From a virus, in UHGV virus genome UHGV-0120658: a stretch of DNA of 39,443 nucleotides. One strand, written 5' to 3'. This document shows positions 2,188-36,538 of the stretch, in pieces. A model generated the notes under the pieces. The model did not search any database. It had not been told where the DNA came from and saw nothing but the letters and a program-made list of their open reading frames with translations. The translations under genes were made by a program, and so were the position numbers. The number at the start of each line of letters is the position of its first letter. Position 1 is the stretch's first letter.

Positions 2188-3132
2188 TTAATCTGTTTCT
2201 TTATCACTTCCAGTTACTTTAACTTTGTCTTTGATTGTATTCACAAATGACGCAAAGCTCGGTGGTTGCTCTGTCTGACCTGAAAATGCAGAGTCACCTG
2301 AAATATTCCAATCCTTAAAGACTTCTATTGCATCCTCTTTAGTTGCTGTAGAACCGTATATCTGCAAAAAAACTTGACCAAACATCAAAGCATGTCGACG
2401 ATCTTTTCGCCTGATCGATTCATGTGTGTACTTTTTTGAGTTACTAAGGCAGATATATGATAGCCATGAAAGAATGGCGATTCCAACTAATCCTCGCGTG
2501 AAGATATATATTAACTGAAGGTTAGTGAGATTTTTTAAATCTAAGTTCATGTATAATGTAAAAAAAGCAGATACTACCGCAAGGAAGCCAAAAAATACCC
2601 CAGCAATAGACCAGATAATAGACATCAATATAAAATGTTTGTCATCACTAGCAAGATCTGATTTAACATCGTTAACATAGGTAGGGATTTTTTCATCGAT
2701 TCTTTGTTGCTGTACTTGGCTACGGAGTTCCTTATTTTCACTAATCAATGAATTAACTTGTTTTACATTTTTTTCGATTATTGCGTTTTTTCTATTAATA
2801 TCCTGAGTATAATGCTCTAACTGTAGAGTTAATATGCTGTTTCGTTCTTCTAATTGTATTATATGTTCTACATAATTATTAGGTTCAAGTGATTTTACAT
2901 TTTTTCTTTTATTAGTTTCATTTTCATTTATATTGGGTTCTTCATCCATCGCTGGCCTAGTTATGTATTTTTCAATTAGTGCTAGGTTATTATGAGCTTC
3001 AGAAAACTCTCCTGCTTCTATTAAGTTTTTTATATGAGAGTAGAAGTGTTTTGCTATATTTTCAGACTGTGAATCAAGAAAGTCTAATAGGTGTTTTTTT
3101 ATTTCGCTATCTTTATTGGTTGGTTCAGTCAT
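2188..3132 (-). CDS. Hypothetical 314-aa coiled-coil membrane protein (two predicted TM helices); cargo in the lysogenic operon
   Basis: AT-rich ORF between repressor and int on the same strand. Heptad-rich N-terminal half, two hydrophobic helices (ILMSIIWSIAGVFFGFLAVVSAFFTLYM and LQLIYIFTRGLVGIAILSWLSYICL, about 2446-2631), soluble C-terminus. Start codon 12 nt after the repressor stop. Confidence 0.6.
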   Translation of the reverse strand: MTEPTNKDSEIKKHLLDFLDSQSENIAKHFYSHIKNLIEAGEFSEAHNNLALIEKYITRPAMDEEPNINENETNKRKNVKSLEPNNYVEHIIQLEERNSILTLQLEHYTQDINRKNAIIEKNVKQVNSLISENKELRSQVQQQRIDEKIPTYVNDVKSDLASDDKHFILMSIIWSIAGVFFGFLAVVSAFFTLYMNLDLKNLTNLQLIYIFTRGLVGIAILSWLSYICLSNSKKYTHESIRRKDRRHALMFGQVFLQIYGSTATKEDAIEVFKDWNISGDSAFSGQTEQPPSFASFVNTIKDKVKVTGSDKETD

Positions 3133-3143
3133 GATGTTTCTCT

Positions 3144-4079
3144 TTATATATTTTTAGTAAAAACTCTTTTACATTTTGCCAAAACGATAATGTCAGTAAG
3201 TAAGCATTCAAAACTTGTGTTAGTGCCTACAACTTTAACCATACCAACGGGTATGCGAGTCAAATCTTTGATGCTTATTTTCCCTTCAATATTCACAAGC
3301 CACTTGCCATCAGTAACTTCATTAAATTTTGATTCTACAATATATATTTCCTCATCAATGAATACTGCTAAAGGTTGCAGAAAGGTTCCTTCTAACAACT
3401 TAGAGTCAAAAGTCAAGACGGTTTCTTGAGCAAGAGATCCATCAATTATTTTATGATATGGGATAGTGATAGTATTGATTCGAGGCTTTTCAAACATTGC
3501 CCCGTTACCAGTGGTTAGCCATGTTAATGAAGCACCAGTTTCCAGTGAGCATTGAATAATCCAGTCAGCAGGAAAGGTATCTCTCATGTAACGATTGGCT
3601 AATGTACTTTTTGATACACCAATATGATCAGCTAAAGCTTGTCTTGTCTTAAATCCATAAGCCAAAACGATTCGCTCTATTGCTGCTTTTCCGCCTTGGT
3701 TAATAGTAAAAAAGTTCTCATTTTGGATGTCTTGTTCTCTATTGAGATGTTGATGCTTGCTGTCACAATTGTTGTGACTTTTTTCTGCATTATTTGTAAT
3801 GCTTCCCTTCTCGGTATCAGTGCCAAATGCCAACCACTCGACCGGCACTCCAGTCTCCATGCTACAGATAACAACCCAATCAGCAGGGAAAGTGTCACGG
3901 GCATACCTGTTCGCCATTGTACTTTGCGATATACCTAGGTGATTACAGAATGCTTGTCGGGAAGAAAAACCATAGGCTTTCAGTATCCGATCTATAACCG
4001 ATTGCCCTCCGCGATTCTGCATGATTAAGGATTTCTTTTTTTCGTCCACATGGCGAAATGTGATTTCGTGTGTTGACAT
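3144..4079 (-). CDS. Prophage immunity repressor with two tandem CI-type HTH domains and a C-terminal beta-rich domain
   Basis: Residues about 24-86 and 129-191 are about 59% identical repeats (AYGF..RQA...G.S.ST.ANRY.RDTFPADW...CS.ETG...WL..G), resembling the phage CI N-terminal HTH. Divergent from the Apl-like gene across the 4080-4167 intergenic region. Confidence 0.7.
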   Translation of the reverse strand: MSTHEITFRHVDEKKKSLIMQNRGGQSVIDRILKAYGFSSRQAFCNHLGISQSTMANRYARDTFPADWVVICSMETGVPVEWLAFGTDTEKGSITNNAEKSHNNCDSKHQHLNREQDIQNENFFTINQGGKAAIERIVLAYGFKTRQALADHIGVSKSTLANRYMRDTFPADWIIQCSLETGASLTWLTTGNGAMFEKPRINTITIPYHKIIDGSLAQETVLTFDSKLLEGTFLQPLAVFIDEEIYIVESKFNEVTDGKWLVNIEGKISIKDLTRIPVGMVKVVGTNTSFECLLTDIIVLAKCKRVFTKNI

Positions 4080-4167
4080 AACCGATTTGTGATCCTATTC
4101 TCCGAAATGTGAAGTTGAAGCCACGATTAAAACTGACTCACCACAAGCCAATAGGAGATGTTGCATC
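4080..4167. promoter_or_regulatory. Divergent switch region (lytic and lysogenic promoters and operators expected)
   Basis: Intergenic region between the divergently transcribed repressor and Apl-like gene; contains TGTGA-type motifs. No operator or promoter was resolved. Confidence 0.3.
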
Positions 4168-4389
4168 ATGACCCCTAACATTTCAATAACCCTGAATACG
4201 CCACATGTCACAATTGAGCGTTATAGCGAACTTACTGGTCTTTCAATCGACACAATTAACGATATGCTGGCTGACGGTCGCATCCCTCGGCATCGCCTTC
4301 GGAAAGACAAGAAAAGAGAAAAGGTGATGATCAACCTTGCTGCTCTTACCGTTGATGCACTTACTGATTGCAATGTTGTATTCAACTAG
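4168..4389 (+). CDS. Apl/Cox-like excisionase-type HTH protein
   Basis: 73-aa ORF, first in the rightward early operon, with HTH-like segment [25 protein letters not shown]; AGGAG RBS upstream. Confidence 0.6.
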
Positions 4390-4421
4390 TTCCATTTTGG
4401 GATACATCAGGGGTGTCGACC

Positions 4422-4931
4422 ATGTTTGATTACCAAGTTTCCAAACATCCACATTTTGATGAAGCCTGTCGTGCATTCGCATTGCGCCACAACCTGGTGC
4501 AACTGGCAGAACGTGCTGGCATGAATGTGCAGATTCTGCGGAACAAGCTGAACCCAGCTCAACCTCATTTATTAACCGCACCAGAAATCTGGCTGCTTAC
4601 CGATCTGACTGAAGATTCAACGCTGGTAGATGGTTTTTTGGCACAGATTCATTGTCTGCCATGTGTACCGATTAATGAGGTGGCAAAAGAGAAACTGCCA
4701 CATTACGTCATGAGTGCAACCGCAGAGATCGGGCGTGTTGCTGCAGGTGCGGTATCTGGCGATGTAAAAACCAGTGCAGGTCGTCGTGATGCCATCAGCA
4801 GCATTAACTCTGTAACACGACTGATGGCACTGGCTGCTGTTTCATTGCAGGCCCGTTTACAGGCTAACCCTGCGATGGCGAGTGCAGTTGATACCGTAAC
4901 TGGCCTCGGTGCTTCATTCGGTTTGCTGTGA
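4422..4931 (+). CDS. cII: CII-like lysogeny-establishment activator (coliphage 186 CII homolog)
   Basis: 169-aa product starting [45 protein letters not shown]; recognised from memory as very similar to 186 CII. Start ATG at 4422. Confidence 0.75.
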
Positions 4932-36229: not shown

Positions 36230-36319
36230 TTCTTCGCAATGGAGAACTTTTAAGTTTGCAAAATGGAATAATGCGGTATCATTATTGTGAATTTAGCAAA
36301 AATGGGGAGAACTCGAAAA

Positions 36320-36538
36320 ATGATGATTTGCCCACTGTGTGGAAGTGCCGCCCATACTCGCAGCAGTTTTCAGGTATCTTCATTGACCAAAGAGCGTTAC
36401 AACCAGTGCCAGAACATTAACTGCAGCCATACTTTTGTTACCCATGAAACTTTTGTTCGTTCGATTGCAACGCCAAAAGAGTCAAATCCGGTTCAGCCGC
36501 ATCCAATGAAATCAGGACAGGTGGCGCTCTCTCTTTGA
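36320..36538 (+). CDS. ogr: Late-gene transcriptional activator Ogr (zinc finger; 186 B homolog)
   Basis: 72 aa MMICPLCGSAAHTRSSFQVSSLTKERYNQCQNINCSHTF with CxxC...CxxxxC, aligning with remembered P2 Ogr. Confidence 0.85.
   Translation: MMICPLCGSAAHTRSSFQVSSLTKERYNQCQNINCSHTFVTHETFVRSIATPKESNPVQPHPMKSGQVALSL

Follow-up and report, generated by a model that had tools for sequence, protein, structure and literature searches.

The cI gene and its two DNA-binding heads

The DNA analysed here is the 39,443 nt UHGV virus genome UHGV-0120658 (hereafter the window), and its repressor gene cI (3144..4079, minus strand) encodes a 311 aa protein with two helix-turn-helix (HTH) domains. The genes of this region run in the order int, a variable gene, cI, an 88-bp switch, an apl-like gene and cII, a layout that matches the annotated record of phage 186. 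cI is the first gene of a leftward lysogenic operon upstream of int, and faces the apl/cox-like gene and cII across the switch. The apl/cox-like gene (4168..4389, plus strand) encodes 73 aa and falls in phrog_575, a Cox-like excisionase and repressor family; cII (4422..4931, plus strand; 169 aa from the ATG at 4422) matches PF06892 (Phage_CP76) and begins at its N-terminus as 186 cII does. A first-pass annotation, made from the sequence alone, had proposed an immunity repressor. The location of the gene bears this out: the int side lies on one flank, and on the other pR and pL face each other in a switch with apl-like and cII genes.

Phage 186 CI, a textbook alternative to lambda CI, assembles into a wheel of seven dimers by which DNA is wrapped and looped. 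The window open reading frame (ORF) is a 186-type CI immunity repressor, as judged by its domains and fold, the position of the gene and the layout of the switch. It shares with 186 CI (2FJR, 2FKD) the two Pfam families, the fold of the C-terminal domain (CTD), the gene position, the face-to-face pR and pL with apl and cII, and three repeated sites at pR. The two proteins are approximately 32% identical, and residues 133–308 of the window CI align to the entire 186 CI chain (2FJR). What precedes them is an additional N-terminal leader, HTH domain and 40-aa linker, so that the window CI carries two HTH domains in one chain, where 186-type CI proteins have one per monomer.

The ORF list, Pfam and the 2FJR alignment divide the gene into five parts, all on the minus strand. 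Codons 1–23 (4011..4079) encode the leader, MSTHEITFRH..., and overlap both the pR −35 hexamer and operator O1. The first HTH domain, N1 (residues 24–86, 3822..4010), has the recognition helix ISQSTMANRYARD; the second, N2 (residues 129–191, 3507..3695), has VSKSTLANRYMRDTFPAD; both were called by Pfam and by hidden Markov model (HMM) domain searches. Between them lies a linker (residues 87–128, 3696..3821) that is predicted to be disordered, and the oligomerization CTD (3147..3506) completes the protein. PF07022 (Phage_CI_repr) was found twice (whole-protein E 3.8e-58) and PF16452 (Phage_CI_C) once, at residues 206–304 (E 8.6e-27), in agreement with the two DNA-binding domains in one polypeptide and the single CTD of the first-pass annotation. 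The copies that it had placed at residues 24–86 and 129–191, with about 59% identity, were recovered by gapless alignment at an offset of 105 residues, with 37/63 amino acids (58.7%) identical. Local self-alignment of the protein scored 243, against 26.9 ± 4.7 (maximum 60) in 500 shuffles. The recognition helices differ at few positions (SQSTMANRYA in N1, SKSTLANRYM in N2). The coding DNA of the two copies, thought to be about 70% identical, proved to be identical at only 111/189 positions (58.7%; 57%, 84% and 35% at codon positions 1, 2 and 3). With a proportion of synonymous differences (pS) of 0.86, synonymous sites are near saturation and the two copies are therefore old.

An AlphaFold monomer model, for which 43 two-HTH homologues served as input, placed N1 (predicted local distance difference test (pLDDT) approximately 80–87), N2 (85–90) and the CTD (80–93) with good local confidence, while residues 90–126 of the linker scored below 50 and the predicted template modelling (pTM) score of the whole model was 0.37. 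The predicted picture is of beads on a string, the heads having no predicted packing. The modelled CTD superimposes on the 186 CI CTD (2FKD) with a template modelling (TM) score of 0.93 and a root-mean-square deviation of 1.3 Å (Foldseek), and resembles the LexA and lambda CTDs only distantly in fold (Foldseek E 4e-6 to 1e-2). No Pfam match to Peptidase_S24 was found in the window CI at E ≤ 0.01, and the ‘peptidase S24’ label that one source gives to the homologue P0006 is unsupported by the Pfam and Foldseek results. Only PF07022 and PF16452 scored above the curated Pfam cut-offs, and all homologues found were of CI type. The first-pass annotation had referred the protein to a ‘P2/186 family’; this is too broad, as P2 C is a small (approx. 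99 aa), single-domain, unrelated protein with no Pfam or sequence relation to the 311-aa ORF. PMC2995052 describes P2 C as an immunity repressor of the same phage group that binds non-palindromic direct repeats, and to that extent the two are alike.

Purifying selection on both heads is strong. In the main group (group A; 28 distinct genes), the ratio of non-synonymous to synonymous substitution (dN/dS) was 0.049 for N1 and 0.094 for N2, compared with 0.58 for the linker, 0.44 for the CTD and 0.41 for the 23-codon leader. In the recognition helices, several residues do not vary in either HTH copy; in N2 these are S156, S158, T159, R163 and Y164. This pattern suggests that both heads are functional. 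The linker is hypervariable in length and sequence. pS is approximately 0.65–0.69 across cI outside the leader and about half that, 0.38, in codons 1–23 (4011–4079), consistent with the overlap of this segment by the pR −35 and operator O1. The CTD (3147–3506) evolves fast, with some 35–60% identity among proteins whose heads are 85–95% identical; one possible reason is the avoidance of mixed oligomers between the repressors of co-resident prophages.

Origin of the first head

Because only 2 of 80 loci from GTDB species representatives carried a two-HTH gene, IMG/VR loci were used instead for comparison. Two classes of single-HTH CI bear on the origin of the gene. The first, of approximately 198 aa (P0042, P0045; loci L010, L021, L023 and others), comes from Citrobacter, Klebsiella and Raoultella prophages. 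It shares with the window N2 (89%), the CTD (55–59%), an identical recognition helix, the Apl protein (88%) and the pL side of the switch (44/45 positions), but lacks N1, and its pR operators are GT(A/C)CCCAAWTGGGAAC palindromes that are absent at the window pR. The second, of approximately 208 aa (P0078, from Salmonella enterica subsp. diarizonae; loci L012 and L013), shares the leader (57%), N1 (83%), the helix SQSTMANRYARDTFPAD and three TCACA..CG repeats at pR, but has one HTH, an unrelated Apl (25%) and a CTD that is only 32% identical.

Segment by segment, the resemblance of the window CI to the two classes changes along the chain. Against two 208-class proteins (P0078, P0087) and two 198-class proteins (P0042, P0045), respectively, identity was 57–65% versus no comparable match for the leader, 79–83% versus 56–57% for N1, 65–68% versus 81–89% for N2, and 32–33% versus 55–59% for the CTD. 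N1 is closest in this set to the HTH of P0078 (83%) and N2 to that of P0042 (89%). A tree of HTH domains gave the same division: N2 groups with the 198-aa CI proteins, and the main N1 group sits with those of 207–208 aa. The end of the linker retains the N-terminal leader of the 198-aa class (YPNEIKINPNQGGKA in that class, QNENFFTINQGGKA in the window and PIEININPNQGGKA in relatives), its motif xPxExxINxNQGGKA matching MSTLKYPNEIKINPNQGGKA of P0042.

The DNA shows where the two parts meet. In sliding comparisons, identity between the window and L010 is 70–95% from a point 900 bp upstream of cI to about −60, and returns to this level at about +360 for the rest of cI; the inner block (roughly 0–30%) has no counterpart in L010. 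Against L012, identity is 58–78% between about −60 and +240 and at background elsewhere. The apl-like protein resembles that of L010 (88% identity) far more than that of L012 (25%), and 44 of 45 positions on the pL side agree with L010. These limits define a captured cassette of approximately 410 bp (3729..4139, boundaries ±30 bp; roughly −60 to +350, counted from the cI start). It comprises pR with its operators, the cI start, the leader, N1 and part of the linker. At the left, the cassette meets the backbone at an operator-like sequence found at +14 of 198-class cI genes. From sequence comparison, then, the additional head did not arise by local duplication, and the N1 block is a cassette within a 198-class backbone. 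The first-pass annotation had taken the copies for an internal tandem duplication, a view at odds with an N1 that is 79–83% identical to 208-class HTH domains and an N2 that is 89% identical to that of the 198-class, when N1 and N2 are only 59% identical to each other. A man-made parallel exists in the engineered lambda–186 hybrid repressor (7JVT), in which a 186-type CTD that matches that of the window CI carries a foreign N-terminal head, so the 186-type CTD tolerates head swaps; there, however, a single head replaces the native one and none is added.

Operators and the function of the two heads

The putative pR promoter (TTGACA, 17-nt spacer, TATTCT; 4073..4101, plus strand) scored 10/12 matches in a promoter scan and is laid out like the annotated 186 pR. 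Its −35 hexamer overlaps the cI start codon, and both hexamers are invariant in the five related switch regions that align through this stretch. The putative pL (TTGAAA, 17-nt spacer, CAACAT; 4158..4186, minus strand), which faces pR, has a weak consensus and was placed by analogy with 186, according to where the annotated pL of that phage stands with respect to the start of apl. Three TCACA-type repeats lie over pR, all given here on the plus strand. Putative operator O1 (CGAAATGTGA, or TCACATTTCG on the cI strand; 4054..4063) is within cI codons 6–9, the operator-like repeat O2 (CGATTTGTGA; 4083..4092) is in the pR spacer and is less conserved among relatives, and putative operator O3 (CGAAATGTGA; 4103..4112) is just 3′ of the pR −10, where L010 has GTACCCAATTGGGAAC. 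The consensus CGAWWTGTGA has exactly three matches in the 39 kb (4054, 4083 and 4103), all on one strand and within 60 bp. The repeats are spaced by 29 and 20 bp and are placed like the three CI sites of 186, but as direct TCACA-type repeats they are unlike the 186 pR sites in sequence.

O1 and O3 are conserved, and they follow the CI head rather than Apl. The O1 core is kept in 17 of 20 unique switch regions of two-HTH genes with an SQST-type N1 helix and is absent from 94 of single-HTH genes with an SKST helix; at least two TCAC..CG repeats are present in 17/20 of the former and 0/94 of the latter, and in the same comparison the palindrome CCCAAnTRRG was confined to the SKST single-HTH regions. 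Individual loci agree: L012, with a single N1-like HTH, has the same three repeats in the same places around pR, while L010, with the same Apl and an N2-like HTH, has CCCAATTGGG palindromes there (GTACCCAATTGGGAAC and GTACCCAAATGAGATC). At the two-HTH gene of a further group, group C (L121), the pR sites are of the kind found with single-HTH CI proteins that share its N1-like helix. The pR repeats are therefore best described, from this covariation, as probable N1-type CI sites. Two other identities were considered and rejected. The repeats were not accepted as Apl/Cox sites, since L010, with an 88% identical Apl and a 44/45 match on the pL side, has other sites at O1 and O3. Neither CRP half-sites (for the TGTGA motifs) nor regular palindromes fit O1–O3, which have no consistent second half-site; partial symmetry is seen only in O1 (CGAAAT-CAC-ATTTCG) and O3 (CTTCAC-N6-GAGAAT). 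No 186 FL/FR-type ATTCAC-N5-GTGAAT sequence with up to one mismatch was found near the window switch.

Since single-HTH L012 has these repeats too, their direct-repeat character is not a consequence of the tandem architecture, as the first-pass annotation had supposed, but would be a property of the N1-type HTH. Its prediction of a distinct immunity specificity fares better and stands as an expectation, given that neither 186 nor the nearest single-HTH relatives have the same pR operators.

A different type of site is suggested for N2. Its recognition helix, VSKSTLANRYMRDTFPAD, is the same as in L010 and other 198-class CI proteins, which use GTTCCCAATTGGGAAC operators. A position weight matrix (PWM) of 198-class operators was built on a small base of 10 unique sites from eight related loci (own scores 10.6–21.0). 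In 16 of 27 distinct two-HTH genes its best match (13.8–21.5) falls precisely 34 nt ahead of the N2 GG codons, the same offset as that of the +14 operator in 198-class genes; in all, 17 of the 27 have such a site in the DNA that encodes the linker. In this linker site the base just ahead of the Pro codon is invariably C, whichever residue (F, S, N or A) its codon specifies, and CCA serves for Pro in 14 of 15 cases. Glu is encoded by GAG; one Val replacement retains G at the first and third bases; and a change of Glu to Gly in two genes improves the palindrome (GTCCCCAATTGGGAAC in L123). Conservation of the site, judged by codon usage, is thus that of the nucleotides. Site strength also splits perfectly by N2 helix residue, with 17 ..NRY.. 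genes scoring 11.9–21.5 and 10 ..TRY.. genes scoring 5.1 or less (Mann–Whitney p 1e-5, a statistic that ignores shared ancestry). Within its linker codons the window has two weak operator-like sites of N2 type, at an interval of 20 bp: GTTCTCATTTTGGATG (3714–3729) and GTTCTCTATTGAGATG (3734–3749), with PWM scores of 10.9 and 11.9. They are the weakest of the ..NRY.. group, but lie exactly where the sites of relatives score 13.8–21.5, some 345–360 bp from pR. In 186, CI has three sites at pR together with the distal sites FL and FR about 300 bp away, which aid pR repression and allow pL activation (PMC3675496; annotated 186 record).

We consider it somewhat probable that the gene encodes a functional bispecific CI of a widespread, inducible 33-kb P2/186-like Klebsiella prophage, made by cassette capture, and that the protein probably recognizes two different operator types. 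The ancestor would have been a phage of the 198-aa CI class, which would have captured the approximately 410-bp cassette from the 208-aa lineage and with it new pR operators, a cI start and head N1. The cassette would have joined in frame at the operator sequence within the first codons of the old cI, and such a join would leave the old head N2 in place behind a disordered linker of about 40 aa. As to which head binds which site, we infer that N1 would bind the three TCACA-type repeats over pR and set the phage's own immunity, and that N2 would retain the ancestral specificity for GTTCCCAATTGGGAAC-type sites, acting on the operator that the linker codons contain, some 350 bp away from pR, in analogy to 186 FL, and/or continuing to repress superinfecting phages of the ancestral immunity class. 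The CTD would assemble an oligomer that links the N1 and N2 contacts. The fuller form of this proposal is one that we hold only tentatively: a natural bispecific repressor that escapes the immunity of the ancestral class yet represses that class (one-way cross-immunity), with the old head on an FL-like operator in the linker DNA, in a protein that is also portable as an accessory anti-phage gene.

Several observations weigh against a bispecific protein, besides the small base of the matrix and the shared ancestry already mentioned. The window sites are at chance level genome-wide (top scores in shuffled sequence 10.6–12.5). Single-HTH genes of the 208-aa class carry a CCCAA-like match near +317, and a single head might therefore recognize both types of site, as has been reported for 186 CI. 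A conserved element between the apl-like stop and the cII start (GTTCCATTTTGGGATAC, 4391..4407, plus strand; in its longer form TAGTTCCATTTTGGGATA(C), 4388–4407) occupies the position of 186 FR/pE, about 316 bp from pR, and is a candidate flanking site or pE −10; it was ruled out as an N2-specific site, being identical in two-HTH, 198-class and 208-class loci, the last without N2, while its flanks diverge. The AlphaFold monomer (pTM 0.37) offered no confident arrangement among the CI domains. Finally, in other, very divergent lineages of the family the tandem HTH copies resemble each other far more closely, and this suggests that two heads bring some general benefit that has nothing to do with dual specificity.

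A rather unlikely alternative draws on that last point. In it, the chain is a single-chain pseudo-dimer whose N1 and N2 each take a half-site of one composite operator, so that a monomer does the job of the 186 dimer and the valency of the oligomer doubles, with neither a second specificity nor cross-immunity. The combination of tandem HTH and CI_C recurs in several deep lineages, some with copies about 70% alike, and, in the window CI itself, the few differences between the recognition helices would suit this arrangement, as would the asymmetry of the pR repeats and the imperfect inverted repeat in O3 (CTTCAC-N6-GAGAAT), whose right half is like an N2-type half-site. O1 and O2, however, have no recognizable second half-site, the single-HTH CI of L012 has the same pR repeats, the internal N2-type site covaries with the N2 helix, and the linker of about 40 aa, disordered and hypervariable, gives no hint of a fixed N1–N2 geometry. 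A two-domain immunity repressor that works as a monomer is known from mycobacteriophages (PMC9283540): that protein likewise has two DNA-binding domains in one polypeptide and binds an asymmetric site, but belongs to an unrelated family, has a second domain that is no HTH copy, acts as a monomer at many stoperator sites and has no wheel-forming CTD.

It is less probable still that N2 is vestigial, having lost DNA binding after the capture, and acts solely as a spacer or as an interaction surface, be it with an antirepressor or in oligomerization. The window has only N1-type sites at pR and no statistically significant N2-type site: in a genome-wide PWM scan the top matches (856, 3734, 3714 and 35371) were not above shuffled sequence. 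An inert N2 is nevertheless hard to reconcile with a dN/dS of 0.09 and invariant helix residues in the face of saturated synonymous divergence, with a helix identical to those of working single-HTH CI proteins, and with the covariation of that helix with the strong internal sites of relatives. Were N2 inert, the finding would shrink to an annotation curiosity. The best-scoring match of the scan, CTCCCCAATCGAGGCC (856–871; 13.3), lies in an 89-aa ORF to the left of int and is conserved in L004, with a score near chance.

For the origin of the two heads, the competing account is a single ancient duplication in place, with the 198-aa and 208-aa classes derived by later loss of N1 or N2. We regard this as poorly supported and improbable. 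In-place duplication does occur in the family. Very divergent members (24–38% identity) also have two HTH domains and a CI CTD (P0141, P0149–P0152, P0160, P0165, P0178, P0183, P0228, P0272 and P0275), and the greater likeness of the copies in P0228, P0272 and P0275 suggests that these duplicated independently and in place. Two heads have thus emerged more than once in the family, in some cases probably through genuine duplication. In the window CI, the gapless self-alignment weakly reaches the leaders (residues 2–86 against 107–191). The single-HTH form, on the other hand, is that of 186 and of most of the family: among 130 representatives at 50% identity with an HTH domain, 111 have one and 19 have two. 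Moreover, at least three further N1 lineages each sit beside other single-HTH CI proteins in the HTH tree, so that N1 occurs in at least four unrelated lineages nesting with different single-HTH CI proteins, while N2 forms one group with the 198-class. The 198-class backbone outside the 410-bp block and the 208-class CTD, only 32% identical, also argue against a common two-HTH ancestor.

As a common natural variant of 186 CI with two different heads per subunit, the protein bears on how immunity specificities evolve, through the addition of a head and its operators as a cassette rather than by replacement. It also raises the questions of possible one-sided cross-immunity of prophages over their relatives and of how a wheel with 28 heads would engage DNA. 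The importance of the finding would grow if one-way cross-immunity or the intragenic operator were confirmed. In clinical Klebsiella pneumoniae clones the prophage ranks among the most widespread, and the range of its immunity has consequences for phage therapy and prophage competition.

Distribution of two-HTH cI genes and neighbouring loci

That the gene is an artefact or a pseudogene, through assembly duplication or an untranslated first copy as the first-pass annotation allowed, is refuted and has no point in its favour: the copies are just 59% identical in DNA, the gene is present in hundreds of independent assemblies, its frame is intact in 28 distinct group-A genes with an N1 dN/dS of 0.05, and both possible starts, M1 and M20, lie ahead of N1. 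The exact 311-aa protein occurs on at least 280 contigs, under the database name ‘phage repressor protein CI’, and its cluster at 90% identity holds 434 sequences from Klebsiella and E. coli. Copies that are 98.7% identical are found in the deposited Klebsiella phages ST11-OXA245phi3.1 and ST340-VIM1phi10.2. PMC7371120 describes this prophage as 33.3 kb long, inducible and identical across many K. pneumoniae clones, with an insertion site between a TetR-type gene and a transporter gene, as in the window; it was imaged by transmission electron microscopy, and the paper makes no mention of the repressor.

Two HTH domains were found in 47 of the 120 best clusters at 90% identity, in proteins of 290–330 aa from Klebsiella, Escherichia, Salmonella, Citrobacter, Enterobacter, Edwardsiella and Kosakonia. 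Together with the 19 of 130 representatives at 50% identity, this is hard to square with the first-pass view that two HTH domains are unusual. Two-HTH CI sequences are abundant and are annotated simply as CI. We found no prior description of a two-HTH 186-type CI in the literature searched, whose coverage is incomplete so that this absence is no proof, and a 2011 survey of P2-like regulatory genes leaves the architecture unmentioned. Database annotations of the start vary between M1 (311 aa) and M20 (292 aa). In the Klebsiella phage ST11-VIM1phi8.4 (L002, MK416020.1, 3043–3978) the cI coding sequence was annotated from an internal start (locus 3205), and the deposited annotation therefore omits the first HTH. 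Truncated two-HTH genes of 227–237 aa without the CTD (L015, 2501–3190; L122, 2501–3214; P0047; P0135) may reflect prophages in decay or variants that consist of heads alone.

The gene between cI and int (2188–3132, minus strand; 314 aa, phrog_2628) has predicted membrane and coiled-coil features. PADLOC gave no match for this protein or for the window CI. In relatives the same slot holds unrelated genes (L004, 3940–4911; L006, 3958–4740; L119, 3450–4967), one of them a PDC-S20/PifA-like NTPase, and it looks like a variable moron or defence hotspot. Tandem cI genes also exist. In L119 (1875–3424) and L125, both from IMG/VR, the resident single-HTH cI at the switch is followed, after 50 nt and in the same orientation, by a two-HTH cI of 307 aa that lacks a TCACA-type switch of its own; next comes the PDC-S20/PifA-like NTPase gene, in the variable cI–int slot. 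This arrangement is compatible with the use of two-HTH cI as an accessory immunity gene, the portability suggested above.

Further repeats were noted at the other end of the window, in the intergenic region between D and B(ogr) (36230–36320), which contains CGCAATGGAGAAC, GCAAAATGGAAT and GCAAAAATGGGGAGAAC together with a promoter-like TTTGCA, 16-nt spacer and TATCAT (36255–36282) followed by TTGTGAAT. By analogy with 186, these may be candidate CI sites at a pB-like promoter.

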